A stretch of 64,000 nucleotides of DNA from an uncultured Candidatus Saccharibacteria bacterium (GCA_964569655.1 CAZMTN010000001.1:139395-203394); one strand, 5' to 3'. Counted from the first letter of the stretch, positions 3,462 to 61,190 are shown. Numbers and translations are program-made. The notes: generated by a model from the letters alone, not told the origin.

Positions 3462-3517
3462 GAGCAAAATGATATACTGGGCGAGTAGAGGGTATTACTA
3501 GGTAATGCTTCGTATCC

Positions 3518-6199: not shown

Positions 6200-6211
6200 G
6201 GGAGCGCTCCA

Positions 6212-6240
6212 TTGCGGAATACGGCCTTATTTGGTAGATT
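6212..6240 (+). promoter_or_regulatory. Putative promoter TTGCGG-N17-TGgTAGATT; leaderless start 6 nt downstream at rpmG
   Basis: Hexamers read from the sequence. Confidence 0.35.
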
Positions 6241-6246
6241 TGATGC

Positions 6247-6402: not shown

Positions 6403-6407
6403 GCACG

Positions 6408-6437
6408 AGCCGCCCCCAAGGGCGGCTTTCGCTTTTC
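6408..6437 (+). terminator. Rho-independent terminator: stem AGCCGCCC, loop CCAA, stem GGGCGGCT, then TTCGCTTTTCC
   Basis: Perfect 8-bp GC stem plus T-tract directly after rpmG. Confidence 0.5.
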
Positions 6438-6489
6438 CACTATCCTCATGGTGCGCCCACGCGGGCGCGCTATACTTGAGAAACCAATT

Positions 6490-10488: not shown

Positions 10489-10511
10489 GGGGATAAATAA
10501 CGTACAGACCT

Positions 10512-11177
10512 ATGCCTAAAGAAACCAAGAGCAACTATTGCGAGAACTGCGGCGACTTCCATGAAGCGGAGCCGAGGGAGCATCACTCCTTCGTCCGTAT
10601 CGGGGAGCCGGTTCCAGACTACGAGTTCGAGTATTTCCAGAAGGACGAGATCAAGAAGGCCAAATTCTCCGACTTCCGCGGCAAGTGGCTCGCGGTGGTG
10701 TTCTACCCGGCGGACTTCACCTTCGTCTGCCCGACCGAGCTCGAGGACCTCGCGAAGCTCTATCCGAAGTTCAAGGAGGTAGGCGCAGAGATCCTCTCGT
10801 TCTCGACCGACACCGCCTTCGCGCACAAGGCATGGCACGACACCTCACCGGCCATCAAGCAGATCGAGTATCCGATGGGATCGGATCCGTCCGGCAAGAT
10901 CTCATACGCGTTCGGCACCCTTATCGAAGGAGGCGACATGCCGCTCACGGCGGACGAGGGCCTCTCGCTCCGCGGCAGCTTCCTCATCGATCCGACTGGG
11001 AATCTCCGCACTATCGAGATCCATGATAATTCCATCGGCCGTTCCGCGAAGGAGACCTTCCGCAAGCTCCAGGCCGCGCAGTTCGTGGAAACCCATCCGG
11101 GCAACGTCTGCCCCGCATCCTGGGAACCGGGAGACGATACACTCGAGCCGGGCGTGGGCCTCATCGGGAAGATATAA
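10512..11177 (+). CDS. Peroxiredoxin (AhpC/Tsa 2-Cys family) with a ~30-aa N-terminal extension
   Basis: FVCPTE peroxidatic-Cys motif, resolving Cys in GNVCPASW, Prx fold order throughout. The extension carries CENCGDFHEAEPREHH. Confidence 0.85.
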   Translation: MPKETKSNYCENCGDFHEAEPREHHSFVRIGEPVPDYEFEYFQKDEIKKAKFSDFRGKWLAVVFYPADFTFVCPTELEDLAKLYPKFKEVGAEILSFSTDTAFAHKAWHDTSPAIKQIEYPMGSDPSGKISYAFGTLIEGGDMPLTADEGLSLRGSFLIDPTGNLRTIEIHDNSIGRSAKETFRKLQAAQFVETHPGNVCPASWEPGDDTLEPGVGLIGKI

Positions 11178-11185
11178 AGAATGAA

Positions 11186-11217
11186 CCGGCGGAAATGAAT
11201 CCGCCGGTTTTAGTTTA
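11186..11217. terminator. Bidirectional terminator hairpin (ACCGGCGGA / TCCGCCGGT) between convergent genes
   Basis: Perfect 9-bp stem; TTTAGTTT follows on + and a T-rich run on -. Confidence 0.55.
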
Positions 11218-11877
11218 CGCAGTCAATTTCGCCCAATTCTCGCCCTTAGGCCGCAAGGGTATAGAACCTTGCTTGCAGAGCGGGCAGTCGGCCGGCAACC
11301 ACATGGGCATATGCCGGTCGATGAGCGCGACCAGCCTCCTCCTGTGGAGTTCACTCTTACTCGAGCGATTTACCAGGCAGGCGAAGTAGAGGATCGCCGT
11401 GGCGTGCGCCAGCTCGACGAGCGCCTCGACGAGGGTGATGCTCCCGCCCGTGGTGATGACGTCCTCGCACAGAAGGACCTTCTCGCCAGGCTTCGGGCGG
11501 CTGTCCTTCCACTCGAATCGGACGGTGATGCCATTCTCGACGATTTTCACCGGCGATGACCATTCGCACTTGCGTCCCCGTAAGTCCGTGATGATGTCAG
11601 CGAGGAATTCCGCGAGCTTGGTAGCACCGGTCTCAGGTCCCACCACCCGGTCTACCTCGAGCACGGTCGGATCAAGGGCGATGAGCTTGGTGATGAGGTC
11701 CGAAGCTGCCTCTCTGAGGAGCGCCTCGTCTGGAATCACGTTGCGGCTGTTGAAGAAGCCGTTCGAATGCCTTCCCGAAGTAAGTTCCGCATGTGGCTTC
11801 CTGGGGTCGCCGCCATGCATCCATAGGGCATCCTTGTCCTTGTAGGCCTGGATCCAGCCCTTCTCGCTTCTGTACAT
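11215..11877 (-). CDS. Phosphoribosyltransferase (orotate-PRTase-like, PyrE family)
   Basis: PRPP-binding motif VLLCEDVITTGGS, Rossmann-like surroundings, 220 aa. Confidence 0.7.
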   Translation of the reverse strand: MYRSEKGWIQAYKDKDALWMHGGDPRKPHAELTSGRHSNGFFNSRNVIPDEALLREAASDLITKLIALDPTVLEVDRVVGPETGATKLAEFLADIITDLRGRKCEWSSPVKIVENGITVRFEWKDSRPKPGEKVLLCEDVITTGGSITLVEALVELAHATAILYFACLVNRSSKSELHRRRLVALIDRHMPMWLPADCPLCKQGSIPLRPKGENWAKLTA

Positions 11878-22621: not shown

Positions 22622-22695
22622 TGGGGGGTCGTCTAATGGTAGGACAGCGGCCTTTGAAGCCGTGAATCTTGGTTCGATCCCAAGCCCCCCAGCCA
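22622..22695 (+). tRNA. tRNA-Gln (anticodon TTG), U1-A72 acceptor pair, CCA encoded
   Basis: TGGGGGGTCGTCTAATGGTAGGACAGCGGCCTTTGAAGCCGTGAATCTTGGTTCGATCCCAAGCCCCCCAGCCA: anticodon loop CTTTGAA, T-arm CTTGG-TTCGATC-CCAAG, discriminator G; resembles the E. coli tRNA-Gln architecture. Confidence 0.85.
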
Positions 22696-22711
22696 GTGTT
22701 ATTGTTTCTAT

Positions 22712-23485
22712 ATGGAAATTGAGAGGCATAAAAAACAGTTTGGCAATCAGGCTGCAAACTATACAAAATATAGACGACCGTATACTCAAAAGCTTTATGA
22801 GCTGCTGTTTTCATTTTCTCCAACTGCAAAAAAGAAAATACTCGACATTGCCTGCGGCACAGGGAAATCTACTGAGCCGCTCTTTCTGGAGGGTGCAGAG
22901 GTTATAGGAATCGATCATGATCCATTAATGATTGAAGAGGCGCAGAAACAAGCATCTCTTAAATCTCTGCCAATTACATACCTTGTGGCTGACGTCGAGC
23001 ATCTTCCATTCGAAGATAAAAGTTTTGATATTGCTACTGTTGGCACTGCCTTTCATTGGTTCGTTAACGAGCCGTCTATAACTGAAATAAAGAGAGTGTT
23101 GAAAGGGAATGGTCTACTATTCGTGTTCTGGACTCTGACTACCAAAGATGTACCGGAAGAGGATTCCATCCCTGGAGATTTCCTACGATCCTTCAATTGG
23201 GACAAGGTACCTTCTGAACTTCGCAATCTCGAACACATCTCGTCTTTCCTAATAGATAATGGTTTTAAGAATGTATCTACAGCAAGGATTCCGTTTACTC
23301 ATAACGATACAGTTGAGGATCAGGTTGGGCTCATGAAAACTGCATCGTGCTACGAACTGCTCACGAAGGAAGATCAAGATCGCTTTGATAGGGAATTGTC
23401 TGTGATTCTGACCACTAAACTAGGAGATCGGCCTTACTTTACCTATGAGGAGGAAATCCAGGTCTGCTATGGGTTTAAGGGATAG
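22712..23485 (+). CDS. Class I SAM-dependent methyltransferase
   Basis: Motif I ILDIACGTGKST, later acidic motifs (IGIDHD, VADVEHLPFEDKSFD); AT-rich codon usage; TGtTATTGT -10 lies 6 nt before the ATG. Confidence 0.75.
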   Translation: MEIERHKKQFGNQAANYTKYRRPYTQKLYELLFSFSPTAKKKILDIACGTGKSTEPLFLEGAEVIGIDHDPLMIEEAQKQASLKSLPITYLVADVEHLPFEDKSFDIATVGTAFHWFVNEPSITEIKRVLKGNGLLFVFWTLTTKDVPEEDSIPGDFLRSFNWDKVPSELRNLEHISSFLIDNGFKNVSTARIPFTHNDTVEDQVGLMKTASCYELLTKEDQDRFDRELSVILTTKLGDRPYFTYEEEIQVCYGFKG

Positions 23486-23632
23486 AAAAGTTCTAACGTC
23501 GTTCAATACCCGCAGCCCGATAATGTAGAATGCGCTTATGCAACTCGAGTACGTATACGATCGAGAAAAAGATATTGAATGCCTTCTAACAAAAGGTAAG
23601 AGTTCCCCCACGGTTCATTTGTGAGGGCGGTG

Positions 23633-23941
23633 TTAGCTTCCAGCTTGCATGCCAGCAAGGAACGCAGAGGTGAGCAGGCGCTCCAACTCGGTACGGCTGG
23701 CCGGCGTCATTGAGTTGGAAAAGTCCATCATAGCAACAAGCATGGCCAACTCCTTATTGCCGCGATCGCTTTTGGCATTGTCACGACTGAAGCGACTCAG
23801 CTTCTTTGGCTCATGCGAGAAAATTTGGACGACTTTCTGCCCATCCAATTTGTCGCCGACTTTCACATCATCACCCACCCTTCGAATGCGAGGCGGGGAA
23901 CTGATTTTTCCACTTTTCGTTACTGCGAAATTGAGCTTCAT
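23633..23941 (-). CDS. Hypothetical protein (102 aa) in the AT-rich islet
   Basis: ORF of ordinary composition; the opposite-strand ORF 23649..23960 is the alternative; the strand call is weak. Confidence 0.2.
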   Translation of the reverse strand: MKLNFAVTKSGKISSPPRIRRVGDDVKVGDKLDGQKVVQIFSHEPKKLSRFSRDNAKSDRGNKELAMLVAMMDFSNSMTPASRTELERLLTSAFLAGMQAGS

Positions 23942-24189
23942 CTTCTTCCACTCGCTATAATTTCTGAAAATAGAATACTATATAAATATATCTATGTCAA
24001 TATCAAAGTTCCAACTTCGTCCCAGATGCCCAGCAAATTGACAATAATGCCTATATTAGGTATTGTTTTTTCGGAAGATTCTTAACTTCTTAATTCGCCG
24101 TAGCAAAAACATGCTCATGTTTGGGCGCATTTTTGCTACGGCGAAACGCATATCGCGCAAGCTTTGTTAGCACAGAGGAGAAAACTGCA

Positions 24190-25002
24190 ATGTCGAGCGA
24201 CAAGCAGAAGACCTTTGACGGCCAGACCGCCCAGTTTTTGGGAATCGTCGGGCAAAACATGCCACGTCTTACCAGTGAGGTAATGCAGAGATGGGTTGAA
24301 AATCCTAAAGCGCTTCAAAAGGTGCTCAGTTGGGGTCTTCAATCGGACCCCAAGGCTGCAACATCAATGGTGCAATACGAGATTGGCAACTGCATCGAGC
24401 GCAGCACGACGAAAGTCAGCGATCCGGATGGTGGGAATGTGCTCTACGACATCAACACCGAAAGTCTACCGCTGCCATACAAGCAGGCAATCTATCTGGG
24501 ACAAGGCGTTAACCCATTCAAGGCCATGCGTGTCGAAGACCTTGATTTCCGGCTTGGCGTTGAATATGCGCCAGGCAAAGTGAATCGCGCACGATGCTTG
24601 GCCCTTCGTCCGTATCTCGTGATCGAGGCGATGGATGGTGTCGGCGAAGGTTGTCACATACCGATCCGTTCTATTGACTACTGGGCCGACCACGCCAAGG
24701 CACCAATCGTACCGAAGAGCGGTGGTGCGCTGACCATATTGGAAGCGGACAAAATCAACATGTCCGAACACTTGTGGGACCTTGAGATCGGGTATGTAAA
24801 TGGGGCATTGGAATATATCTCCGATCGCTTTACTTTTGGCTTGTCGATTGAGGACCAGCAATACGGATGGTTGGTTCATCTTCATTGGCTCACAGATGGC
24901 GGCGCGGCCCTTAATACTTTCCGTTTCCAGTTGCGGAAAGAGTTCCTAGTCAACGAATACAGGGAGGCGAAATTGGAGCCTCCAACTGAATTGCTGAAGT
25001 AG
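24190..25002 (+). CDS. Hypothetical protein (270 aa)
   Basis: Start taken at MSSDKQKTF, which has a GGAGAAAA Shine-Dalgarno; the ORF-track start at 24121 lacks one. A terminator follows. Confidence 0.5.
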   Translation: MSSDKQKTFDGQTAQFLGIVGQNMPRLTSEVMQRWVENPKALQKVLSWGLQSDPKAATSMVQYEIGNCIERSTTKVSDPDGGNVLYDINTESLPLPYKQAIYLGQGVNPFKAMRVEDLDFRLGVEYAPGKVNRARCLALRPYLVIEAMDGVGEGCHIPIRSIDYWADHAKAPIVPKSGGALTILEADKINMSEHLWDLEIGYVNGALEYISDRFTFGLSIEDQQYGWLVHLHWLTDGGAALNTFRFQLRKEFLVNEYREAKLEPPTELLK

Positions 25003-25009
25003 ACAATCT

Positions 25010-25046
25010 GGGCGGTCACCTTAACGGGTGGCCGCCTATTTTTTTG
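25010..25046 (+). terminator. Rho-independent terminator (GGCGGTCACC ... GGTGGCCGCC, then TATTTTTTT)
   Basis: 10-bp stem with one mismatch, then a 7-T run. Confidence 0.5.
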
Positions 25047-25095
25047 CTCGAAAAGGTTCCAACTTCATACCAGACACCCAGCCAGCAGGTATACT

Positions 25096-25431
25096 TTGCA
25101 TATGCTAGACAAGGCACGACAGATTACTTTGAACGCACTTCCTGTTGCGCTCATGATTGGTCTGATACCGCTGGTCCTGAATGATTACTACCTGGCGGGG
25201 ATATACATCCTGATCGCAATCGCTGCCCTCGCCATTAGGCGGGAGCGGAATGATCTTGTCGCGTACCTGTTCGGACTCATCATCATTACCATCTCGGAGT
25301 ATTTCTTCATCAGCACGGGAGTCGAGACGTTTGCCCGCAACAGCCTCTTCGGCGTCATGCCGCTATGGCTCCCGTTCCTCTGGGCCTATGCTTTCGTAGT
25401 CATAAAGCGATCGCTCCGCATCCTCAGCTAG
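25096..25431 (+). CDS. Hypothetical integral membrane protein (3-4 TM helices)
   Basis: Hydrophobic segments LNALPVALMIGLIPLVL, AGIYILIAIAALAI, LVAYLFGLIIITI, LFGVMPLWLPFLWAYAFVVI. Confidence 0.45.
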   Translation: MHMLDKARQITLNALPVALMIGLIPLVLNDYYLAGIYILIAIAALAIRRERNDLVAYLFGLIIITISEYFFISTGVETFARNSLFGVMPLWLPFLWAYAFVVIKRSLRILS

Positions 25432-25468
25432 AGAGGTTCGAACCCCACGCGATGCTAAGCTACTTACT

Positions 25469-26044
25469 ATGAAATGGATACTGATCACCGCAGCCGCTGC
25501 TATCGCTGTCATCGCAGGCTTCTTCGCCTTGAATGCGTACATATACGAGGAGAAGCAGGCCACAGCAGTCAAGGATTATAAGGATGCAGAGTATCTGATC
25601 GAGGGGCAGCGCATACGCCTTTCGGACGGGATAAGCGAGAGCGAGCCGGTGCCAGGATCTGCCGCAAGGATCGTGACCCGCTATTTCGGCAATGAGCTCA
25701 CGGCCGATATCAACAGCGATGGAAGGGAGGACGTGGTGTTCCTCCTGACTCAGGAGCAGGGAGGCACGGGCGTTTTCTACTACGTAGTCGCGGCACTCAA
25801 TACAGAGCGAGGATATATCGGATCGGACGGGTACTTCCTTGGCGATCGCATAGCGCCCCAGTCTATCGACCTAAGCCAGAACCCGCGGCACGTAGACGTG
25901 ATCGTGGTGAATTACGCTGACCGCAACGCTGATGAACCGATGACCGCAGCCCCATCCGTAGGAAAGAGCGTATACCTGAAGATCGACCCCGCATTCATGC
26001 AGTGGGCGATAGTCGAGCCTGATTTCGAGGGAGAATCAAGGTAG
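25469..26044 (+). CDS. Hypothetical secreted/membrane-anchored protein
   Basis: N-terminal signal-anchor MKWILITAAAAIAVIAGFFAL; no recognised motifs. Confidence 0.45.
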   Translation: MKWILITAAAAIAVIAGFFALNAYIYEEKQATAVKDYKDAEYLIEGQRIRLSDGISESEPVPGSAARIVTRYFGNELTADINSDGREDVVFLLTQEQGGTGVFYYVVAALNTERGYIGSDGYFLGDRIAPQSIDLSQNPRHVDVIVVNYADRNADEPMTAAPSVGKSVYLKIDPAFMQWAIVEPDFEGESR

Positions 26045-26082
26045 TTCAGTAATTCTACATAGAGGTTTGCTATCATGGTTGC

Positions 26083-26232
26083 GTGAAGGGTTTGCCACAA
26101 GGATCAGGAATCGCTCTCGGGATCGCTCTCGGAGTCGCGCTAGGCGCGGCGATGGACAATATCGCTATTGGGATAGCGATCGGGGTCGCGATGGGAGTCG
26201 CTTTCGACGCTGGCCGCATCTCAAAAAGATAG
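26083..26232 (+). CDS. Possible small glycine-zipper membrane peptide (49 aa, GTG start)
   Basis: GIALGIALGVALGAAMDNIAIGIAIGVAMGVAF with repeated GxxxG/AxxxG; weak start context. Confidence 0.2.
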   Translation: MKGLPQGSGIALGIALGVALGAAMDNIAIGIAIGVAMGVAFDAGRISKR

Positions 26233-51001: not shown

Positions 51002-51074
51002 GGGCCGTTAGCTCAGTTGGTAGAGCATCTCATTTGCAATGAGAGGGTCGCAGGTTCGAATCCTGTACGGTCCA
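51002..51074 (+). tRNA. tRNA-Ala (anticodon TGC)
   Basis: GGGCCGTTAGCTCAGTTGGTAGAGCATCTCATTTGCAATGAGAGGGTCGCAGGTTCGAATCCTGTACGGTCCA folds with the G3-U70-type acceptor, anticodon loop TTTGCAA and T-loop TTCGAAT. Confidence 0.85.
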
Positions 51075-52551
51075 CCCCGGTAGACAGTTCAGTCGAAAAT
51101 ACTGATTCCGTCGCAAAGATAAAGGAAGTTTCAGAAGTTTTAAATTCTTTCCCGTCAAAGACGACGCCAGAAGGAAATTGGAACTTTTGAAGCTTAGTCT
51201 TCGTTTCGTGCCTAGCCTGCAGCCAGACCTTCCCTGGCGCAGAAATATAGTCACGTGCAAGCGTGAGGGCTCCTGCAACGTCTACTCGCCCATGCTTCAA
51301 GGAGACCTGCTTTTCATACAGGGCAAAGGTTTCTTTCTCCATACGAGCAAGCTGGCTCTTAAGAACGTCATCGCTGACTACACCACTGAGGTTCTTGTCG
51401 ATAAGAACGGCCTGACGGTCCTGAAGCCCAGTAAGGCGAACCTCAATTTCTTCTAGGGCTTTCTGCTGGCCTTTAGTAGCTTCAGCAAACTTCTTACGCA
51501 CCAAACTCTCAAGCTTGTTCAGATGTTCCTTGCTGGGTGCAAAGCGGTTCATAAAGTCCGCAAAGTCCTGGTGCACGATCTCGCTACGCATATCGCTTTT
51601 CTTGACTCCTACGAAGCGATAGTAGGGATACTTACCTTTAGCGAAACTACCGGTAAGCTTCTTTCCTTCAGAGTTTTCAATGAAACGACGCAAAGGGAAG
51701 TCCGGATTATCACGCTTATAAACTGAACTCTTCTTACCCTTCTTGAGAAGTACGCACTGTACCTGATTAAACAACTCCACAGAGACGATCGGTTCAAAGC
51801 TGCCCTTATTTGTCTCACCAAATTTCTCGATAACCCCCATATATACCTTGTTCGTCAGCATCTTGTAGAAGTACGATCGTGCCGGGGACTTCCCATTTTT
51901 AAGACACAGTCCGCGATCGCTCATCATCTTCCAAACGCCGTCAATTGGGTGCAGTGAGGTAGCTACAGTCTCAAAAGACTGAAGAACTAGGGCACTCATA
52001 TCTCCGAGCTCAAGGTTCGGCTTCCCACCTACTACGCCATTCCTAAAGCCAACAGGTGCAGGCCAGACATAACGACCTTCCCGCACTGCATCCTTCATAC
52101 CGCCTCCACAGCGTTCACTACGCATGTCGTTATCAAACTGCGCTACGTTAGCGAGAGTGTTCTCAATAAACTTACCTGCAGCTGTATCGTCAAATTGCTC
52201 CGTTGCAGAAAGAAGTTCAATCTTATACCGCTTAAGCAATGCCCGGATTGTTGCGTGATCTTCTGTACTACGTGCAAGGCGATCAACCTTGTACACAAGC
52301 ACAGCACTGATATTGTTTTTCCTGATCGTGCAGAACTTGAGCATCTCTTGCAATTGAGTCCGGTTGGCGGTCTTTGCGCTCTCACCGGCTTCTACGAATA
52401 CGTGAATCACATCAAAGCCCTTTCGTACCGCAAACTCACGACAAATGCGCTCTTGAGAAACCAGACTATTTCCCTCATCAGCCTGGGCACTGGTTGAGAC
52501 ACGGACGTAAACTACGGCACGCGGCTTACTACTCCCATGAACATTGTTCAT
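51013..52551 (-). CDS. Large serine recombinase (resolvase-type catalytic domain, recombinase domain and Zn-ribbon/coiled-coil region)
   Basis: N-terminal AVVYVRVSTSAQ (catalytic Ser), VLVYKVDRLARS, recombinase-domain and C-terminal features; 512 aa. The last ~20 codons are read from the antisense of tRNA-Ala. Confidence 0.8.
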   Translation of the reverse strand: MNNVHGSSKPRAVVYVRVSTSAQADEGNSLVSQERICREFAVRKGFDVIHVFVEAGESAKTANRTQLQEMLKFCTIRKNNISAVLVYKVDRLARSTEDHATIRALLKRYKIELLSATEQFDDTAAGKFIENTLANVAQFDNDMRSERCGGGMKDAVREGRYVWPAPVGFRNGVVGGKPNLELGDMSALVLQSFETVATSLHPIDGVWKMMSDRGLCLKNGKSPARSYFYKMLTNKVYMGVIEKFGETNKGSFEPIVSVELFNQVQCVLLKKGKKSSVYKRDNPDFPLRRFIENSEGKKLTGSFAKGKYPYYRFVGVKKSDMRSEIVHQDFADFMNRFAPSKEHLNKLESLVRKKFAEATKGQQKALEEIEVRLTGLQDRQAVLIDKNLSGVVSDDVLKSQLARMEKETFALYEKQVSLKHGRVDVAGALTLARDYISAPGKVWLQARHETKTKLQKFQFPSGVVFDGKEFKTSETSFIFATESVFSTELSTGVDRTGFEPATLSLQMRCSTN

Positions 52552-53211
52552 AAGTATTTCCTTTATTCTTGTACATCCTAACTAGTTGTCCCGCGTAGCG
52601 GGCTCCTGGGGCTTATTTAGCTTCCCTCAAGTATGCCTCCACAAGGATTTCGGCGAGATATGTCAGCGCGGCATCTGCAGGGCGCTCCAAATTATTACTG
52701 CTCACGAGAGTTCGTGTGTCTGATCCAACCTTCGTATTAAGCGTAGCGGACCCTTCTTTCTGTCAGGTTCCTATCCGTAACGGTAGTAGGAAAACCAAAC
52801 AACGGTACGCTGCGGCCAAAGCAAATATGGAATACGGCGGCGAGAGGTGAGACACCTTAGCTGGTAAGCAGGGGGAATAAAACGCCACCCTGGTTACCTG
52901 CCGGTGCTTATTACAGCTGACAATAGCATAAAAAGTTGTGAAATTCAATCCGATTATGTGGAAGCATTTTGTGTCGACCTTGGGAAGGACTATACTGAGA
53001 TTGTTCTACAACTGAATAAAAGGCCCGCGAGGGTCAGGACCTAACCCGCCAGCTTCGGCTATCGGTATGGTCTAAAAAAGTCCTGCAAAGACACAATGAA
53101 CCCGTCATGGGGGAGTCTTTGCAGGCCTAGAGGGAAACTTCTAGCCGGCCCGTCCGGGACCCGTGGCGGGTTCATTGTGCGCCCGTCCGGATTACTCGTC
53201 ATGAGAGTCCT
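52552..53211. ncRNA. 660-bp non-coding, highly structured region (candidate large ncRNA or recombination/regulatory region); unclassified
   Basis: No ORF over 60 aa in a gene-dense genome. Hairpin CTGGTAAGCAGGG...CCCTGGTTACC at ~52880..52920. Interleaved inverted repeats at 53080..53195: GTCCTGCAAAGAC/GTCTTTGCAGGCC and CACAATGAACCCG/CGGGTTCATTGTG, a pseudoknot-type topology; direct repeats GCCCGTCCGG occur twice. Confidence 0.25.
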
Positions 53212-53505
53212 ATGACTAAGGCACTCCGTATTTCGGTTATCGTACTCGCTATTGTTCTTGCTGCGTTCGTTGCTCTCGTTCTTGCGTACATGGTTACGCC
53301 ACCGTTCTTTATTTCATTCGGGCAGCACTACATTGGTGCACCAGATATATTCTCCGTATCTGATTTCTATCGTTGTGACCCTAACGGTGCAGACGACTGC
53401 GTACTCACAAGAGAATCTCTCTTTGCGGCGGTTGCGAACGACCCGCACATCGCAAACTGGTGGCCAGTTAACGGATCATTCATCCTGCCGGAGGAATATG
53501 ACTAA
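53212..53505 (+). CDS. Hypothetical membrane-anchored protein (97 aa)
   Basis: TM ISVIVLAIVLAAFVALVLAYMV; overlaps the next gene as ATGACTAA (translational coupling). Confidence 0.4.
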   Translation: MTKALRISVIVLAIVLAAFVALVLAYMVTPPFFISFGQHYIGAPDIFSVSDFYRCDPNGADDCVLTRESLFAAVANDPHIANWWPVNGSFILPEEYD

Positions 53506-53875
53506 GCGCATTGGGGATGAAGGGTGGCTGGATGAGCCACTAGCTAATCTCGACCTAAGCGAGCAAGTATCGCCTACGAATCCCGATGAAGAGCGCTATG
53601 GGGCAGTAATGGATGGCTTCGAACTGCCTAACATCACCCACGACAAGGAAGTCAGTCCACTCGGCACGTTCGTAATCCGTGCACTTATCGCAGTAGTTAC
53701 AGTCTTCTCCTTGTGGGCAGTGTTCGTCGGCCTCACTACATCCGATGGTGAAGGGTACACACCCACCGGTGCCGGATGCTGTGTGTACTGCTCAGTCGGT
53801 AAAGCATGCGGTAACACCTGCATCGAGCGAAGTGACGCGTGTCATGTTGGGTCAGGCTGCGCCTGCGACCAATGA
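53498..53875 (+). CDS. Hypothetical single-pass membrane protein with C-terminal Cys-rich knot (9 Cys in 33 aa)
   Basis: TM FVIRALIAVVTVFSLWAVFVGL, then GAGCCVYCSVGKACGNTCIERSDACHVGSGCACDQ. Start at the internal Met at 53498; the ORF-track start 53252 overlaps the previous gene. Confidence 0.4.
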   Translation: MTKRIGDEGWLDEPLANLDLSEQVSPTNPDEERYGAVMDGFELPNITHDKEVSPLGTFVIRALIAVVTVFSLWAVFVGLTTSDGEGYTPTGAGCCVYCSVGKACGNTCIERSDACHVGSGCACDQ

Positions 53876-54169: not shown

Positions 54170-54736
54170 ATGAATCCAGATGAATTGAAAGAGCGCATTC
54201 GTCTTGCAGAAGAAGCGGTTGCCGGCATGACCGATGAGAACTTGAAACGAATCGCCTTTGAAACGTTACTCACACATTCTCTCGGGGGAGAGCAGTCATC
54301 GAACACCAAAAAGAGCAGCACCCGTTCTTCTAAGAAAAAGTCGGGTGCAGCACGACCGAAGTCCGCTAAACCGACAACGGAAAAGAAAGTTAGCTCAATC
54401 GAACTTGATGTTGAGCAGTTGAAGAGCCTGAAGAGCTACTACGATGATCATGCTCCTTCCGGTACTGAAGAATCGGTATTCACTCTCGCCTTCTTCATCC
54501 ATGAGGTGCTCAAGCAGAAGGTCTTCCACGAAGCGGATGTATTTGGTCTCTACACCAGCTTGATGCCTCTTAAGCCTACGCAGAAGCCCCCAGTATTAAC
54601 TCTCGATACAGTAAAGAGGGCAATGACATGGCTTGTTGCACCTAGTCGCCGTAAGCAGTGGCTCAAGTTCGTTGACGGTGGTTACGAGATTAGCTCGCAC
54701 GGTATCCACCACATGACTTATAAGGATGAAGTGTAA
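54170..54736 (+). CDS. Hypothetical protein, paralog 1: N-terminal helix, Ser/Lys-rich disordered linker, C-terminal winged-helix-like domain
   Basis: C-terminal FTLAFFIHEVLKQ...LTLDTVKRAMTWLV...KFVDGGYEISSHG has the helix-helix-helix-wing pattern (K.GWI ... GGY.IS..G) of wHTH domains. Confidence 0.45.
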   Translation: MNPDELKERIRLAEEAVAGMTDENLKRIAFETLLTHSLGGEQSSNTKKSSTRSSKKKSGAARPKSAKPTTEKKVSSIELDVEQLKSLKSYYDDHAPSGTEESVFTLAFFIHEVLKQKVFHEADVFGLYTSLMPLKPTQKPPVLTLDTVKRAMTWLVAPSRRKQWLKFVDGGYEISSHGIHHMTYKDEV

Positions 54737-54753
54737 CTCTAAGCTCAACAACC

Positions 54754-55338
54754 ATGGCGAAACTTACGGTTGATCTAAAGAACGGTTTGCTCGAAGTGGA
54801 AGGAGACGAATCCTTCGTAAAGGAGGTCTACGACGACTACAAGGAAGCTCTCGCAATGCTTACGGCACAGGTCCTCACGGCAAAGGAGGTGCACACACCT
54901 GAACTTGGAACAGGTTCATCAAAGAAAACTGGCTCAACTAATCCAAAGCCTACCGGCGCACAGACACACTCAAAAGGTGTAACACGTGAGGAGCCTACAT
55001 TTGTTCCCGACCTGAATCTTAATCCGGGAACCAAGCCTTCTCTCAAAGAAATCTACGCAAAGCTTTTGCCTGGAAAATCTACTGCAATGGAGAAGAACGT
55101 TGTGTTCGTTCACTATCTTCAGCGCACACTTGGGATTACTGGTATCGGTCTCAACCATATCTACACCTGCTACAAGGAAGTGGGAGAGAAGGTTCCTGTC
55201 GCGTTGGCGCAGAGCTTGAGGGATACTGTAAAAAAGGGTGCATGGATCGACATCACCGATGTGACGAACATCCATATGACGGTTCGAGGCGATAACTTCG
55301 TCGAGCACGAGTTGCCTCATGGATCCGAGGATAAATAA
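54754..55338 (+). CDS. Hypothetical protein, paralog 2 of 54170..54736 (same architecture)
   Basis: Linker GSSKKTGSTNPKPTG; C-terminal VFVHYLQRTLG...LAQSLRDTVKKGAWIDITDV...VRGDNF parallels paralog 1. Confidence 0.45.
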   Translation: MAKLTVDLKNGLLEVEGDESFVKEVYDDYKEALAMLTAQVLTAKEVHTPELGTGSSKKTGSTNPKPTGAQTHSKGVTREEPTFVPDLNLNPGTKPSLKEIYAKLLPGKSTAMEKNVVFVHYLQRTLGITGIGLNHIYTCYKEVGEKVPVALAQSLRDTVKKGAWIDITDVTNIHMTVRGDNFVEHELPHGSEDK

Positions 55339-55352
55339 GACTCGCAATTCAT

Positions 55353-56108
55353 ATGACACGTGAAGAACTGGACCTATTCGCTAGCCGCTTTGACGGTTTC
55401 GCTGCACTCTCGGCAGTGAAGCAAATCGACTACTTGGCCTACTACTTACTTGCTCAAAAGGGGAAGGAAAGCATTACCGCAGGCGATCTCGAAGAGTGCT
55501 TTAAACTTCTCGACCTGCGACCGTATGCGCGCATGTCGGTACACCTTTCGGAATCTGCCTCAAAGAAGGATGGTCGATTCATTAAGCACTCTAAGGGGTA
55601 CAGGTTGGAGCGCGCCGCGCTAGAAGAGATTCGTGCAATCGTTGACGCGGAGCCAGAGCGAGAGAAGGTATCTGTTCATCTCACTGACCTTGTACCGAAG
55701 ATCAGTGAGGCGCAGGAACGGGTTTTTCTTGAAGAGGCTATTCGCAGTTTCCGCGTAAAGGCATTTCGTGCAGCAGTCGTTATGACTTGGATTCTCACAA
55801 TGGAGCACCTGCAGAGGTTCACTTACGGGAATAAGCTGAGCGAGTTCAATGCGGCCATCGCTGCGCACCCAGATAACAAGCGCATGAAAGCAATCACTGC
55901 GTATGATGACTTCGCTGACCTAAAGGAATCAAGGGTCATTGAGCTCATGCGGAGCGCTGGCGTTATCTCTCCCGACGTAAGAAGGATTCTCGATGAGAAA
56001 CTCGGTATTCGAAACAGTGCGGGCCATCCATCCGGAGTTATTCTGTCTCCCCATAAGGCCACGGAGTTCATCCTCGACCTTGTTGAGAACGTTATCCTGA
56101 AGTACTAG
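55353..56108 (+). CDS. Hypothetical protein: N-terminal winged-helix-like domain related to the two upstream paralogs, plus a C-terminal helical domain with an Rx4H (HEPN-like) motif
   Basis: N-terminal DYLAYYLLAQKGKESITAGDLEECFKLL...KKDGRFIKHSKGYRLERAA (wing K.GRFI...GY.L). C-terminal EKLGIRNSAGHPSGV carries R-x4-H inside a predicted all-helical domain, as in HEPN RNases. Terminator hairpin follows. Confidence 0.4.
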   Translation: MTREELDLFASRFDGFAALSAVKQIDYLAYYLLAQKGKESITAGDLEECFKLLDLRPYARMSVHLSESASKKDGRFIKHSKGYRLERAALEEIRAIVDAEPEREKVSVHLTDLVPKISEAQERVFLEEAIRSFRVKAFRAAVVMTWILTMEHLQRFTYGNKLSEFNAAIAAHPDNKRMKAITAYDDFADLKESRVIELMRSAGVISPDVRRILDEKLGIRNSAGHPSGVILSPHKATEFILDLVENVILKY

Positions 56109-56200
56109 TTGGCTGAACACGCAGAATTGTCTCCAACGACTGAATCTCCTTGCAAAAGGAGTTCCAAAACTCCATCCCAAGGTCCACATTCGTTCACTTG

Positions 56201-56226
56201 AAGGCACGAAAGTGCCTTTTTGTGTA
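56201..56226 (+). terminator. Terminator hairpin AAGGCAC-GAAA-GTGCCTT plus TTTGTGTAT
   Basis: 7-bp stem with GNRA loop and T-rich tail after the 55353..56108 gene. Confidence 0.45.
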
Positions 56227-56481
56227 TAGTTTCCAACGCTTTTCGCAGGTTCTAATATTTCTGGTGGACAGTTTAGCGAATCTACCCCGTCTCGTAGGAT
56301 TTCTATAGGCTTCTCGACTAGGAACGAGAGGTGGCCCTGGTCGAATATGTGCTCGGTACCGAGGGCTGCAAGGATGGCACGTCTCTTTTCCAGGTCGGGT
56401 ATTAAGGCCAGTGGCCTCCAGCCGATAGTATCAAAATATCTAAAGTTTGGATATTGACTTCTTAGATAGACCATTTAGTAT

Positions 56482-56703
56482 ATGAAGAAGTCAATCCATA
56501 CAAAGGAGTACGCGGTCTTTGTCGAGAGATTGAAGACAGCGCGCCTTGAAGCGGGTCTGACGCAGGTGCAGGTGGCCAAGAAATTGAAACGGCCACAGTC
56601 CCATGTTTCAAATGTAGAGTCAGGGCAACAGAGGCTAGATGTTATTGAACTCCAACGTTTTGCGAAGATTTACAGGAAGGACATCAACTATTTTCTAAAA
56701 TAA
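56482..56703 (+). CDS. XRE-family (Cro/C1-type) helix-turn-helix transcriptional regulator
   Basis: 73 aa; LTQVQVAKKLKRPQSHVSNVESGQQ is a canonical HTH_3; first gene of a tightly packed 9-gene + strand run. Confidence 0.7.
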   Translation: MKKSIHTKEYAVFVERLKTARLEAGLTQVQVAKKLKRPQSHVSNVESGQQRLDVIELQRFAKIYRKDINYFLK

Positions 56704-56707
56704 TTCC

Positions 56708-57229
56708 ATGGTTGAGAACTTGAAAAATGTTGGCTGGACTATTCTGGGAATAGGTTTTTTCTTGCTTCTCATTTTGATAGCAGCTTTGATGCTTAACGGC
56801 GCAGTTTGGGTTGGTGAGCACGTAATTGGCTGGCTTTTTAGTGCCGCATGGATAGTATTCGCCATCAACCTTTTTATCCTTCTACCTCTCGGGCTGTTTA
56901 GGAAAACTGGCGTGTTTGGCGGAATTGCCATGTACTACTCATCGTTTGTATTCGGCTTAACGCTCTGGTTCCTAGGACTCTTGCTTACTTATTTTGCATG
57001 GGGATTTCTTGGAGTCATCGCTGGTCTTATCCTTGGCGGAGTTGGGGTTGTTCCAGTAGCAATGCTGGCCATGCTGTTCGACGGAGAATTCTTTACACTC
57101 GTTGTTCTTCTAGTCCTGACTGCTCTTACGTTCGGCACTAAATTCCTAGGTGTCGTTTTAGCGATGAGAGCAGAGGAAAAAACGAATCAGCTCCACACAG
57201 AAAGGCTGACAACTGAGACTCAGATATGA
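56708..57229 (+). CDS. Hypothetical polytopic membrane protein (173 aa, ~5 TM)
   Basis: Hydrophobic helices throughout; 4 nt after the XRE stop. Confidence 0.45.
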   Translation: MVENLKNVGWTILGIGFFLLLILIAALMLNGAVWVGEHVIGWLFSAAWIVFAINLFILLPLGLFRKTGVFGGIAMYYSSFVFGLTLWFLGLLLTYFAWGFLGVIAGLILGGVGVVPVAMLAMLFDGEFFTLVVLLVLTALTFGTKFLGVVLAMRAEEKTNQLHTERLTTETQI

Positions 57230-57531
57230 CCTACCTCAAACCACTCCTGATTGTCGCGGGAATCATGCTTCTCCTCGCTATCCCTCCCATGTGGCCGTAT
57301 GTCTACTACCAACTCATGCGTATAGTCGTATGTATTGCGGCGGCGTATGGAGCATACACAGCTTTTCAAACAGAGCGTACTGGTTGGGTATGGGTACTTG
57401 GCGCAGTAGCCATCCTTTTTAACCCAATCGCTCCTATCCATCTCGATAAGGAGACGTGGGTTGTGCCCGACATCATTGGGGCAATCATCATGTTCGTGGC
57501 AGCGGTAAAATTGAAGCATCATGGAAAATAA
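57226..57531 (+). CDS. Hypothetical membrane protein (101 aa, 3 TM)
   Basis: Overlaps the upstream stop by 4 nt. Confidence 0.45.
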   Translation: MTYLKPLLIVAGIMLLLAIPPMWPYVYYQLMRIVVCIAAAYGAYTAFQTERTGWVWVLGAVAILFNPIAPIHLDKETWVVPDIIGAIIMFVAAVKLKHHGK

Positions 57532-58114
57532 AGGAAGCATCATTTGGTGGGTCATCATTCTGGCGGTACTTGCGGCTATCGTGTACTTCAACTTCTTTGA
57601 CAAAGATTCGAAAGAACAAGATTCATCGGAAGCGGTTACGGAAGAAGTCTCTGAAGGTAGCTTGATAGCCGACTCTCTAGCAGAAAAATATGGCGCTACG
57701 GTAATAGGCAGAGAAAGTCTCTCGTTTACCATTCAGGCGCAAGATCAGTTGTTGAGCGGTAAGCCAGTGGTGTTCGATGCTTATCTTGATGACGTATACC
57801 GTCGTGATGATAAGACCTACGTGCGCTTCCAGTCATATGACGAAACTGACTATATCCTCGAACTAGAATGCGACCCACAAATGGTCGAGGATAAAGTGCT
57901 CTCGCAGACGGATACCACGGACGATTGGCTTTTCTGGCTCTATAACGAGTATGTCGTTGTTGCAAACATAACCGAGGTATCGAAGCCAGTTATTGCACTT
58001 AATGCAGTAGCGGGCTACGACGAAGGAGATGCAGAAATAGAAGTTGAAACCAGCTCAGTCTTCAGCGCAAAAGGAACGTGCGTTGATATGGAGCATGTGG
58101 TTATAGGCGATTAA
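57521..58114 (+). CDS. Hypothetical single-pass membrane protein with acidic extracytoplasmic domain (197 aa)
   Basis: TM IIWWVIILAVLAAIVYF; overlaps the upstream gene by 11 nt. Confidence 0.45.
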   Translation: MENKGSIIWWVIILAVLAAIVYFNFFDKDSKEQDSSEAVTEEVSEGSLIADSLAEKYGATVIGRESLSFTIQAQDQLLSGKPVVFDAYLDDVYRRDDKTYVRFQSYDETDYILELECDPQMVEDKVLSQTDTTDDWLFWLYNEYVVVANITEVSKPVIALNAVAGYDEGDAEIEVETSSVFSAKGTCVDMEHVVIGD

Positions 58115-58116
58115 CC

Positions 58117-58320
58117 ATGAATACCAAATTCACAAAAATCTTGGTCATAGTTGCGGTTGCGGCTCTTGCGCTTGGTTCTTTAACCTACTTCACTCGGACG
58201 GTATTCGACATCGGCTGTGCGAATACAGAATTGGTGCAGGGCAACAAATGGAAACGCCATTTCCTCGGCATGAATTGCTGGTACTGGGAGGGCAATATCG
58301 ATCTCCAAGCGGAACTATAG
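58117..58320 (+). CDS. Small membrane-anchored protein (67 aa) with two Cys and a Trp-rich tail
   Basis: TM ILVIVAVAALALGSLTYF; ...CANTELVQGNKWKRHFLGMNCWYWEG. Confidence 0.35.
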   Translation: MNTKFTKILVIVAVAALALGSLTYFTRTVFDIGCANTELVQGNKWKRHFLGMNCWYWEGNIDLQAEL

Positions 58321-58324
58321 AGAT

Positions 58325-58843
58325 ATGAATAAAACAACTGCAACAACCAAAGTGCTCGTAGCCGCTGTCGTTATTCTGGCCGTAGTAGCACTTTGGCAGT
58401 TCATGGAGAAGAAAGGTCTTGAGTACGAACTCGTGCTACAACAGTCAATTCCTCACGTTGACCTAACCAATACTCAGTTCGTAGACGGAGGACGTTTCTA
58501 TGCATATATAACAGGTTTCGTAGTCTTCAAAAATGAGGAAGACCAGCCGAAAGATATGCGCCAGTTCTATATGATTGAGCCGACAGCAAGTCCTAATGTT
58601 TATACCCTCAAGGAGATTTTTGAGATGAACTTGCTACCGCCCAAAGTATTTGACCCTGTCATGCTTGATGTCGCACAAGAAACAAGTAGCATGCTCGTAC
58701 TCGTGGATGAGAGTGGAAATACATGGACAATAAACAAACTCACGAAAGAGGTGCAAATGCTAGACTCAACTGGCGACGCAACCTACCTCATCACAAGCAA
58801 CATAGAGTACCAGGACTTTATGCAAAACTTCCTTACTAGGTAA
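58325..58843 (+). CDS. Hypothetical membrane-anchored protein (172 aa)
   Basis: Signal-anchor VLVAAVVILAVVALWQF. Confidence 0.45.
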   Translation: MNKTTATTKVLVAAVVILAVVALWQFMEKKGLEYELVLQQSIPHVDLTNTQFVDGGRFYAYITGFVVFKNEEDQPKDMRQFYMIEPTASPNVYTLKEIFEMNLLPPKVFDPVMLDVAQETSSMLVLVDESGNTWTINKLTKEVQMLDSTGDATYLITSNIEYQDFMQNFLTR

Positions 58844-58848
58844 CGAAA

Positions 58849-59391
58849 GTGCGTATGAGGCTATATAGATTCAGTCCAGTCAAAAATCAAGCGACCCTCA
58901 TTGAAGCCATTCAACACATTCATGCTGAGTGCTTCAGACTCTGTAAGGAATCTGTGGGCGAATATCTACCTGTAGCAGGAAATGTAGGTTTCTTCTGTCA
59001 TTACAATGATGAGTACGACGTTCTTACTGCGCTTCGTGGGCAATTGACTGAATCGTCTGACAATATCAATCAAAAATACTTTCGTCTCTATGAGCCCATC
59101 GTCATTCCTGCTATAGACGATATTCCTGAGACAATCTATACCCATCTTTACATTCGTAAGCCCGATATTTATCGAGCACAGGTAGGCGATATCGATTTTG
59201 TAATGGAGCCAGAGCGGTATGCGGAAATGAAGAAGCGTTTAGAGAGCGGCGAAGTCATCTCTGGTGCTCGTATTTTCCCACGAGGCGATTTGGATATGAT
59301 TGAACTCTATAATCCTGATGTTGATGCACTAGGTTATATCAGCGTGAATGAGATGACTGAGAAAGTCCGGATTAAGACCAATTTTCAATAA
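58849..59391 (+). CDS. Hypothetical soluble protein (180 aa)
   Basis: No recognised motifs; part of the operon. Confidence 0.45.
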   Translation: MRMRLYRFSPVKNQATLIEAIQHIHAECFRLCKESVGEYLPVAGNVGFFCHYNDEYDVLTALRGQLTESSDNINQKYFRLYEPIVIPAIDDIPETIYTHLYIRKPDIYRAQVGDIDFVMEPERYAEMKKRLESGEVISGARIFPRGDLDMIELYNPDVDALGYISVNEMTEKVRIKTNFQ

Positions 59392-59392
59392 C

Positions 59393-59839
59393 ATGGACTA
59401 CCTGAAACGAGCAGTCGAGTTAGCAAAAATTTCACTTGAAGCTGGTGAGTTTCCTGCCGGCGCAGTGCTTGTTAGTAAGAGCGGAAAAGTCTATGAGAGC
59501 AAACCATCAGTGCCTTATAACCACGGCGAAACGATGGTCATAGATATGGCTATCGAATCAGAAGGGGAGCCACTCGTCGTTGGGGCAACTATATATGCTT
59601 CCATGCAGCCTTGCCTCATGTGTTCCTCAAAGATGTACTGGGCTGGTATTGAAAATGCCCACTTTGTGATTCCGAAGAAGAATGTTCGAGCGGATTACGC
59701 TTATGAAAATGAGTTGGATACGACGGCAGTGGCATCAAATTTCTTCAAACCAATTACAATGACCCACCATTCTGAACTACTAGATGAGGCGATGAGTGCA
59801 TATGTAGCATGGGTAAATAAGATTGAAGACCATGGATAG
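59393..59839 (+). CDS. CDA-fold nucleoside/nucleotide deaminase (TadA/guanine-deaminase-like)
   Basis: Zn-binding H(G)E ... PCxxC: NHGETMVIDMA and MQPCLMCSSKM; N-terminal AGEFPAGAVLV typical of the family. Confidence 0.65.
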   Translation: MDYLKRAVELAKISLEAGEFPAGAVLVSKSGKVYESKPSVPYNHGETMVIDMAIESEGEPLVVGATIYASMQPCLMCSSKMYWAGIENAHFVIPKKNVRADYAYENELDTTAVASNFFKPITMTHHSELLDEAMSAYVAWVNKIEDHG

Positions 59840-60581
59840 TGTTTCAATCCCTAATTCCAGGGGTCGCAAGATAGCAGCGGTCATTCATTATTCACAGGGA
59901 AATAAAAGGCTCGCTATTCTTTGTCCTGGCTATTTAGATACTAAGGACTACGCTCATCTTGTAGACCTTGCGAACAAATTTGCAGAGCGTGGATACACCA
60001 CTGTACGCTTCGACCCTTCTGGAACCTGGGAAAGTGAAGGTCCGATATCTGAGTATCTAACTTCTCAGTATCTTGATGATATTAAGAGTGTTTTGGAATA
60101 TATGCTTGCTAAGGATTCATATACTCAAGTCCTACTTGGTGGTCACAGTCGAGGTGGTCAGGTTTCGCTACTGTATGCTGCTCGCGACCCACGTATCACG
60201 GAAGTAGTAGGTATCATGCCTTCGCATGGGCCAGTAGAAGGTTCTCGTCGTACTGAATGGGAGGCTACGGGAGTAAAGGAGTCTGATAGAGATATTCCTG
60301 GGAGTGAAGAGCGACGACAGTTTGCTGTTCCATTTCAGCATGTGCTTGATCGCGACCAATTTGATGCACTGGGAGATATGCCGAACATTCACGTGCCAGT
60401 ATATTTATTTGCTGGAGAATTAGATGATTTGGTGCCTCCTGAAGAAGTCCAAGAACTTTTTGATGCTGCTAACGAACCTAAGAAGTATCTTGTGCTCAAG
60501 GGCATAGACCATGACTATCGCTTAAATCCTCTACAAGTGGAGGAGGTGAACAATCGTATTATTCAAACGATTGAACGTTAA
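59823..60581 (+). CDS. Alpha/beta-hydrolase fold protein
   Basis: Nucleophile elbow GGHSRGG, later acid/His region (DDLVPPEE ... IDHDY); overlaps the deaminase stop by ~17 nt. Confidence 0.65.
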   Translation: MKTMDSVSIPNSRGRKIAAVIHYSQGNKRLAILCPGYLDTKDYAHLVDLANKFAERGYTTVRFDPSGTWESEGPISEYLTSQYLDDIKSVLEYMLAKDSYTQVLLGGHSRGGQVSLLYAARDPRITEVVGIMPSHGPVEGSRRTEWEATGVKESDRDIPGSEERRQFAVPFQHVLDRDQFDALGDMPNIHVPVYLFAGELDDLVPPEEVQELFDAANEPKKYLVLKGIDHDYRLNPLQVEEVNNRIIQTIER

Positions 60582-60609: not shown

Positions 60610-60860
60610 CGCATTCGTTAACTTGTTTAACATTGTTAACGTTTATTAACCGCAGTGCAAAGGAGGGTGGTTCTAATCTCGTATGAGGAGTGGCGCACGA
60701 GTGGTGAAAGTGGGTCTATTTCTTAGTCCAAGAATCAATACAGGGTAAAAAACGTATTGGCTTGCGTTCACTTATGGAAGTTCTAATATGATGAATGAGA
60801 CACCACATCAGAAGAGTTAACAGCCGCAAAGTCCTCAAAAAGCTTTGCGGCTGTTGCTAT
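60610..60860. promoter_or_regulatory. AT-rich segment with clustered GTTAAC/TTAAC repeats (60612..60650) and a perfect 13-bp palindrome AACAGCCGCAAAG-N11-CTTTGCGGCTGTT (60818..60856); candidate protein-binding or recombination site near the island's right end
   Basis: Repeats read directly (cattcGTTAACttGTTTAACattGTTAACgtttatTAAC). The palindrome has no T-tract on either strand, so it is not a classic terminator. Confidence 0.3.
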
Positions 60861-61160: not shown

Positions 61161-61190
61161 TTGACAAGTGTGCTACTTCATAGGTATAAT
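61161..61190 (+). promoter_or_regulatory. Strong sigma70-like promoter TTGACA-N18-TATAAT upstream of 61222
   Basis: Consensus -35 and -10 hexamers, 18-nt spacer. Confidence 0.5.

Follow-up and report, generated by a model that had tools for sequence, protein, structure and literature searches.

The locus

The window – 64,000 nucleotides of one strand from an uncultured Candidatus Saccharibacteria bacterium (GCA_964569655.1, CAZMTN010000001.1:139395-203394) – carries nine closely packed open reading frames (ORFs) on the + strand at positions 56482-60581, here called g1 to g9. Our analysis leads us to read them as, probably, a composite cargo operon on an integrative element: an XRE-family regulator at the head, an envelope module behind it and an array of small enzymes at the end. 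The genes and the regulatory features before them are as follows (TM, transmembrane segment).

56200-56219, +, terminator-like hairpin and T-run, which parts the upstream unit from the XRE-led array
56454-56494, no strand assigned, candidate operator: a 10-nt inverted repeat, TTGACTTCTT/AAGAAGTCAA, across the XRE start codon, with promoter-like TTGACT-16-TAGTAT (a reading of the sequence)
56482-56703, +, g1, XRE-family helix-turn-helix (HTH) regulator, 73 aa; Pfam HTH_3, 1e-10, 41.9 bits against a cut-off of 23; PHROG repressor families
56708-57229, +, g2, polytopic membrane protein of a large unnamed family, about 5 TM predicted by a TM scan; a module member of variable position
57226-57531, +, g3, DUF6804 membrane protein, 101 aa, 3-4 predicted TM; Pfam DUF6804 (PF20619), 1.8e-25
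57521-58114, +, g4, 197 aa: predicted N-terminal TM anchor, acidic linker and predicted oligonucleotide/oligosaccharide-binding (OB) fold ectodomain
58117-58320, +, g5, 67 aa: N-terminal hydrophobic segment and two invariant Cys, in the aligned motifs DIGCANT and KRHFLGxNCWxWE
58325-58843, +, g6, 172-aa protein with a predicted N-terminal anchor, last gene of the module; 7 homolog clusters
58855-59391, +, g7, soluble YecM-like protein, predicted vicinal oxygen chelate (VOC) fold, 178 aa; alternative start GTG 58849
59393-59839, +, g8, zinc deaminase of the cytidine deaminase (CDA) fold, 148 aa, HGE...PCLMC; Pfam dCMP_cyt_deam_1, 2.9e-13, 50 bits against 25
59832-60581, +, g9, alpha/beta hydrolase, 249 aa from ATG 59832 or 252 aa from TTG 59823, with a GHSRGG nucleophile elbow

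Adjacent genes are separated by gaps of 1-5 nt or overlap by 4-17 nt. A first-pass annotation of this DNA had described the same nine genes, and the description holds: independent gene calling on a public Logan contig with the same island (SRR15237806; L001, the L numbers denoting loci of relatives) returned the same nine, and all nine products are held in a protein collection, g7 and g9 there starting from ATG 58855 and ATG 59832 rather than from GTG 58849 and TTG 59823. A hydropathy scan gave about five TM for g2, three for g3, a single N-terminal TM for each of g4, g5 and g6 and none for g7-g9, in agreement with the two polytopic, three single-pass anchored and one soluble protein described earlier. 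The deaminase and hydrolase motifs are likewise present in the translations, and Pfam agrees with both assignments. The statement that the first seven products are all without a recognisable family was wrong for g1, which is an HTH_3 protein, and for g3, which is a DUF6804 protein, while g2 and g7 belong to large unnamed families. Searches of the nine products against PADLOC, PHROGs and NCBIfam returned nothing past HTH, deaminase and hydrolase; the PADLOC 2.0 scan gave generic HTH matches for g1 and nothing significant for g2-g9.

The common strand, the gaps of no more than 5 nt and the absence of any + strand terminator-like site found inside 56482-60581 suggest that g1-g9 are co-transcribed, and g1 probably governs its own promoter via the palindrome that lies over its start codon. 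On the opposite strand an ORF of 181 aa (55929-56474, -) is divergent from the XRE gene, with 7 nt between them, and extends over the 3' end of the 251-aa gene upstream. It has no family match, the public gene call retains only its last 63 codons, and it is probably no real gene; if so, 56109-56481 would be a regulatory spacer.

A mosaic of separately inherited blocks

Evidence that the array is a mosaic comes from synteny, read from the neighbourhoods of relatives' loci. The relatives are metagenome contigs, and the collections searched hold about seven independent instances of the module; for g7 the neighbourhood set comprises 80 species-genome loci (L015-L094). The gene order of the module recurs in about six further contigs, where it is likewise borne by tRNA-linked serine-recombinase elements. 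The fullest arrangement, g2 (C-terminus)-g3-g4-g5-g6, is that of L010 (86-96% identity), where g2 is contiguous with g3 and 86% identical to the copy in the window. L008 and L014 have g3-g4-g5-g6 (64-87% identity), L011 has g3-g4-g5 with a 36% homolog of g2 behind them, L013 has g3-g4, and in L136/L137 a 245-aa replacement stands between g3 and g6. The most conserved gene is g3 (78-96% identical in L008, L010, L011, L014 and L136), and g5 follows g4 in L008, L010, L011 and L014. Between elements whose recombinases share only 22-28% identity, the module is 64-96% identical.

The blocks of DNA and protein homology begin and end with genes. In window coordinates, 57224-58835 matches L008, 57056-58824 matches L010 and 58854-59391 matches the g7 loci: homology sets in at the start of g3 (57224), or inside g2 where the L010 contig ends (57056), and stops at the stop of g6 (58824-58835). 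What lies past g6 differs from element to element. L010 has DUF2726 and DUF5677 proteins in this slot, L008 an 894-aa PHP/AAA_21 protein (8953-11637; PADLOC Ppl, 1.5e-27) and L136 a 760-aa AAA_13 protein (5381-7663; PDC-S06, 7e-69). Homologs of g2-g6 were found in 0/80 g7 genome loci, and neither g7, g8 nor g9 in any of about 50 DUF6804/g4/g6 loci.

Because homology stops at gene edges, the two halves never occur together and other cargo follows g6 elsewhere, we conclude with considerable confidence that the array is a mosaic, in which g3-g6 form a conserved module, g2 is its mobile member and a variable cargo slot comes behind. The first-pass annotation had taken tight coupling to imply one functional unit, a claim that this comparison does not support. 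It had also held that homologs scattered and never syntenic would count against such a unit: this is how the nine-gene set as a whole is distributed, whereas the g3-g6 core is syntenic. Dense packing on a mobile element is, by itself, no sign of one functional system; comparative loci split this array into blocks that are inherited separately.

The integrative element

The array lies on an island of about 10 kb, the guanine plus cytosine (GC) content of which is 0.44-0.50 at 51-61 kb as against about 0.60 in the flanks. The remaining features of the island are these.

51002-51076, +, tRNA-Ala(TGC), the left border of the island (ARAGORN; Rfam tRNA, 72.9 bits)
51013-52551, -, large serine recombinase, 512 aa, the element integrase; Pfam Resolvase (1.3e-30) and Recombinase (7.7e-5)
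53038-53161, +, LOOT RNA (Rfam RF03000), 53.3 bits against a gathering score of 46.4, E 6.5e-8
53212-53875, +, two small membrane-protein genes, 97 aa (u97, from 53212) and 125 aa, one predicted TM each
54170-56108, +, three soluble unknowns of 188, 194 and 251 aa, situated after the LOOT/u97 genes and before the XRE array

The earlier claim that the array is carried on an integrative element is well supported by the shift in GC content, the tRNA-Ala gene and a protein with both Resolvase and Recombinase domains at the edge of the compositional island, which together place it among the large serine recombinase integrative elements. The 3' end of the recombinase gene (the last ~21 codons) runs into the tRNA-Ala gene, which is on the other strand. 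L009, L022 and L121 show this overlap too, and if adjacency is counted as well L136 joins them. The window recombinase is 28% identical to that of L008/L009 and 22% identical to that of L136. L008 and L009 are integrative elements too, with a Resolvase, a Prim-Pol/AAA_25 gene and an adjoining tRNA and tyrosyl-tRNA synthetase (TyrRS). In L009 the Prim-Pol/AAA_25 gene is intact (5838-7583, 581 aa); in L008 it is split into two ORFs (1859-3605) through a frameshift or decay, although the two elements are otherwise nearly identical.

A direct-repeat search for attachment (att) sites returned short chance matches only, a failure that is not unexpected for a serine recombinase. Towards the right end, where GC climbs to the host level, a perfect sigma-70 consensus (TTGACA-18-TATAAT, 61161-61190) precedes a 115-aa gene at 61222 and marks the approximate edge of the island. 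Just past the g9 stop, at 60617-60651, there is a cluster of GTTAAC/TTAAC repeats, gttaacttgtttaacattgttaacgtttattaac, perhaps a site of protein binding or of recombination towards the right side of the island. A 65-aa minus-strand gene after g9 is unrelated to the small minus-strand gene that lies past the module in L008 and L136. The Logan contig ends just inside the tRNA-Ala gene, as would be expected if the population were polymorphic for the island.

Of the genes before the array, u97 is 43% identical to a 131-aa protein that is the first gene of the membrane operon of L136. The 125-aa membrane protein (53498-53875) has eight Cys and a Cys-rich C-terminal tail, CCVYCSVGKACGNTCIERSDACHVGSGCAC, which looks like an extracytoplasmic metal- or disulfide-rich knot. 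The 251-aa soluble protein has a precomputed match to PF27235 (AF_1680). A filamentous- or pleolipovirus-like element was considered and dropped, family scans having detected neither a Zot-type ATPase nor a capsid-like gene. Elsewhere in the window a second patch of low GC (22700-26100, 0.44-0.54) begins right after tRNA-Gln (22622-22695); it is unrelated to the island studied here and contains a methyltransferase-like 257-aa ORF, a 293-aa unknown and two small membrane proteins, with no recombinase.

LOOT RNA and the layout of sister elements

In the window the LOOT RNA lies between the recombinase and u97, 50 nt before this first small membrane-protein gene. Sister elements carry LOOT on the same strand directly upstream of the operon that contains DUF6804, with scores of 64.7 bits in L008/L009/L014 (L008 4404-4528), 96.6 bits in L132/L133 (L132 9299-9423), 58.2 bits in L131 (274-378) and 49.2 bits in L136 (2347-2470). 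Five element lineages, the window included, share the association of LOOT with a DUF6804 operon, and the LOOT region at 53008-53309 of the window is 80% identical to L136 2317-2613. No LOOT was found in a scan of 142 kb of g7 loci with serine recombinases. This distribution suggests that LOOT may be a cis-acting leader or an element-specific RNA, and it gives an orphan RNA a consistent genomic context: on the same strand, shortly before the envelope module.

The order in sister elements is LOOT, small TM proteins, DUF6804, g4/g5/g6, so that LOOT heads the operon directly. The window differs in having three soluble genes (54170-56108), the terminator, the XRE gene and g2 between the LOOT/small-TM genes and DUF6804. 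Given these extra genes, the XRE-led operon looks like a derived rearrangement of the usual layout of the element family.

The soluble enzymes

The g7 protein is widespread, with more than 845 homologs (63-81% identity) and no Pfam domain. Across GTDB species genomes every major Patescibacteria group has the family, as do Woesearchaeota and Nanoarchaeota (DPANN archaea); its members, of about 178 aa, are 60-80% identical and share about 45 invariant residues. The structure model has the paired beta-alpha-beta-beta-beta arrangement expected of a YecM-like protein; no match to a YecM/VOC model was obtained in Pfam, and a sequence profile search of the PDB gave nothing below E=1. The family is a highly conserved, unannotated one, common to bacteria of the Candidate Phyla Radiation (CPR) and DPANN archaea and often found on recombinase islands: a serine recombinase lies within ~8 kb of g7 in 7/80 species genomes, with a tRNA gene nearby in six of the seven.

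The neighbours of g7 vary. They include a TauE protein with a 407-aa protein (L002/L003), PNPOx_N with His_Phos_1 (L004-L006) and, in an archaeon, Cdc6 (L007); on recombinase islands they are PNPOx_N, Flavin_Reduct, SDR, SRPBCC, CDA deaminase and Hydrolase_4 proteins. As g7 sits among such changing small-enzyme arrays elsewhere, the g7-g9 trio is taken here as one instance of a loose but recurrent small-enzyme island cargo, in which cooperation between the three is possible but weakly supported.

The best PDB matches of g8 are TadA (7.8e-9) and guanine deaminase (1.5e-6). By the NCBIfam equivalog it is not TadA (33.1 bits against 150), and neither is it an anti-phage dCTP deaminase, scoring 22.3 bits against 400 for NF041025 and E 0.0096 over 33 residues for the PADLOC dCTPase model. 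For g9, Pfam gives Hydrolase_4 (1.1e-16, 61.3 bits against a cut-off of 27), with Hydrolase_4 and Abhydrolase_1 both at about 1e-16; PDB matches are to dienelactone hydrolase and cinnamoyl esterases (1e-13 to 1e-9). In IMG/VR, g8 is without relatives and g7 is represented by one fragment only.

That g7, g8 and g9 instead form a cooperating salvage or detoxification pathway, acting on a nucleobase or antibiotic-like substrate and merely sharing a transcript with the envelope module, is compatible with our interpretation of the array as a whole, and we hold it possible but doubtful. In three loci a CDA deaminase immediately precedes g7, in one a Hydrolase_4 protein immediately follows it, and g7 is commonly found in arrays with PNPOx_N, flavin reductase and SDR proteins. 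Against this, the association is infrequent (5/80 and 1-2/80 loci), gene order differs, the neighbours are 27-36% identical to g8 or come from another hydrolase subfamily, and g7 is also found alone beside unrelated genes.

The envelope module

Sequence comparison with the L010 copy (dS 0.7-0.9) gives ratios of nonsynonymous to synonymous substitution rates (dN/dS) of 0.03 for g3, 0.08 for g4, 0.03 for g5 and 0.05 for g6, within a range for the module of about 0.03-0.11. Given these low ratios g3-g6 are real genes under strong purifying selection. The module is also rare: g4 has only six homologs among 5.8 billion proteins. The ectodomain of g6 is conserved throughout, and g4 and g6 are not related to one another. 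The g2 protein belongs to a family built on a ~155-aa polytopic domain (1172 representatives at E<=1e-3), joined in some members to Sel1, TPR, RDD or zinc-ribbon domains. Two proteins of sister elements have weak SH3_3 and fn3 matches, namely the L136 protein that replaces g4/g5 and, in L008, a 260-aa protein upstream of DUF6804. Together with the predicted topology these features point to proteins that are embedded in the membrane as a set and expose binding domains outside the cytoplasm. A pilin-like reading of g4-g6 was dropped, the translations lacking a prepilin motif of the G/F-T-L-I-E type.

The match of g3 to Pfam DUF6804 is full length (89.4 bits against a cut-off of 27; profile positions 6-90 of 91). 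We know of no described function for this family, and literature searches on DUF6804, YecM, LOOT and Patescibacteria with serine recombinases returned nothing useful. Outside the module, 41 metagenome loci of DUF6804 relatives (32-80% identity) include none with g4-g6, other small TM proteins usually coming after the gene. In IMG/VR prophages (L138-L145) a 312-aa DUF6804 fusion (3e-15) occupies a lysogeny-module position, flanked by an HTH_3 repressor and a tyrosine integrase; DUF6804 is found also in many non-mobile contexts.

A probable composite cargo operon

We propose that the array was put together from three parts with separate histories on a ~10 kb element that sits beside tRNA-Ala and carries a large serine recombinase, in a host genome that is probably Patescibacteria/CPR-like. 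The first part would be g1, a repressor-type XRE regulator controlling its own promoter through the palindrome. The second would be the envelope module built around DUF6804, in which the OB fold of g4, the two-cysteine mini-protein g5 and g6 would contribute extracytoplasmic parts; g2-g6 may form a membrane complex that serves the element by acting at the cell surface. The third, g7-g9, would occupy the variable cargo slot in which sister elements bear single-gene anti-phage systems, and would serve as auxiliary salvage or detoxification cargo rather than as partners of the membrane proteins. We consider this composite reading of the operon probable, at a level of confidence clearly below that attached to the mosaic structure itself.

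What the module does at the surface is a more tentative matter. Its constancy on small elements, its place behind a repressor-type regulator or LOOT, the lysogeny-module place of DUF6804 and the anchored ectodomains together point to a surface function, and exclusion of incoming DNA or phage in the style of a lysogeny module, or else remodelling of the surface, is the role we would put forward, with a chance of being right that falls well short of even. A bolder form of this proposal – that the DUF6804/OB-fold-anchored/two-Cys module is a new CPR envelope exclusion or defence system, on undescribed small tRNA-integrating serine-recombinase elements, with LOOT as its cis-acting 5' leader – is speculative. 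If true, it would supply the first biological context for the orphan LOOT motif.

An alternative that we judge unlikely is that g2-g6 are the transfer or attachment machinery of the element, making contact with a recipient or host or handling DNA at the membrane through the OB-fold ectodomain, without any part in exclusion. Besides the recombinase (and LOOT, where the upstream region is covered), these small elements have nothing constant but the module; capsid or conjugation genes were not seen in the element stretches examined; and the OB-fold ectodomain and the weak SH3_3 and fn3 matches of the replacement proteins would suit such a role. However, the module has no ATPase, relaxase, pilin signature or secretion component, L008/L009 carry Prim-Pol/AAA_25 replication genes and nothing for transfer, and DUF6804 is found as well in the lysogeny modules of ordinary prophages and in many non-mobile contexts.

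A peptide toxin and immunity cassette is very improbable. In this reading g5 would leave the cell by the Sec route as a disulfide-bonded peptide, after cleavage near ALG/S, with DUF6804 and g2 as its immunity proteins. The signal-like N-terminus of g5 and its two invariant Cys in strongly conserved motifs would fit, and small polytopic membrane proteins are typical as bacteriocin immunity proteins; but the family scans showed neither a bacteriocin family or leader motif nor a transporter or processing enzyme, the N-terminus of g5 is conserved like the remainder, as for an anchor, and DUF6804 is mostly found without g5.

Least probable of all is a single nine-gene system, in which the membrane proteins would import, export or sense a small molecule modified by g7-g9 or would form a new membrane-associated defence: minimal gaps and overlaps, the lack of an internal terminator and the defence genes that fill the g7-g9 slot in sister elements speak for it, but it is largely refuted by the distribution of homologs, the halves never being together (0/80 g7 loci; 0/~50 DUF6804/g4/g6 loci) and homology blocks ending at gene borders, and it has no PADLOC match. 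Of the roles considered in the first-pass annotation – a membrane-associated defence or exclusion system, or small-molecule modification – there remain a conserved membrane module and, in the last three genes, small-molecule enzymes; a match to known defence in PADLOC did not emerge.

Several points nonetheless weigh against the composite operon and the surface role that we prefer. Support for a single g1-g9 transcript comes from strand, spacing and the terminator scan. The right end of the island (~61.0-61.2 kb) was placed by GC content alone, with no att repeat found. The exclusion or surface role of g2-g6 is read from position and topology, no known homolog giving a function to DUF6804, g2, g4, g5 or g6; g2-g7 are without a match in PADLOC and PHROGs, and IMG/VR holds no relatives of g4 and g6. 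The g4 model is of moderate confidence (predicted local distance difference test, pLDDT, 72.6) and draws on six sequences, and OB folds bind ligands of many kinds. Finally, a deaminase lies directly upstream of g7 in 3/80 loci (L029, L055, L066) and Hydrolase_4 directly downstream in one (L045), and therefore g7-g9 may cooperate more than a description as independent cargo implies.

The rare envelope module, kept by strong purifying selection, is the mark of a family of small integrative elements whose cargo has its closest relatives in Patescibacteria. CPR organisms rely on the cell surface for their episymbiotic life, and a surface-modifying cargo could thus affect host attachment or phage resistance.

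Comparison with known systems

E. coli YecM (PDB 1k4n), to be compared along with the VOC superfamily of glyoxalases and extradiol dioxygenases, is 13% identical to g7, with no Pfam or PDB sequence match; YecM itself has, to our knowledge, no established activity. With TadA, guanine deaminase and CMP/dCMP deaminases g8 shares the zinc-binding H(A/G)E...PCxxC core, but its scores are far below the equivalogs. A full-length match and the GHSRG elbow ally g9 with hydrolases of the Hydrolase_4, cinnamoyl-esterase and dienelactone-hydrolase type, and no specific equivalog reaches its cut-off. Similarly g3 is a full-length DUF6804 protein, but most members of that family are without g4-g6 neighbours. 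At the level of the element, a LOOT RNA above the gathering score and a tRNA/recombinase layout like that of sister elements link the island to the LOOT-bearing, tRNA-targeting large-serine-recombinase elements described above.

For the envelope module the closest parallel is with the superinfection-exclusion 'moron' genes of temperate-phage lysogeny modules, for example Ltp of Streptococcus phage TP-J34 and Sie2009 of lactococcal phages. These are small N-terminally or lipid-anchored surface proteins, encoded beside an XRE-type repressor and an integrase and expressed from the integrated element. The placing of DUF6804 between repressor and integrase in IMG/VR prophages is reminiscent of this arrangement, as are weak matches between the fold of g4 and those of two proteins, a 'tRNA_anti-like' OB protein and a phage 'host cell surface-exposed lipoprotein' (E 0.023, TM-score 0.42). 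The differences are that g2-g6 have no sequence similarity to the Ltp or Sie families (no Pfam or PHROG match to them), that a module of five genes stands in place of a single gene, and that the element is without virion genes. No described system was matched beyond generic families. As far as the searched libraries show, neither this module nor its link to LOOT nor the g7 family has been described before; the accessory genes of the element – regulator, membrane proteins and enzymes – are of a familiar kind.

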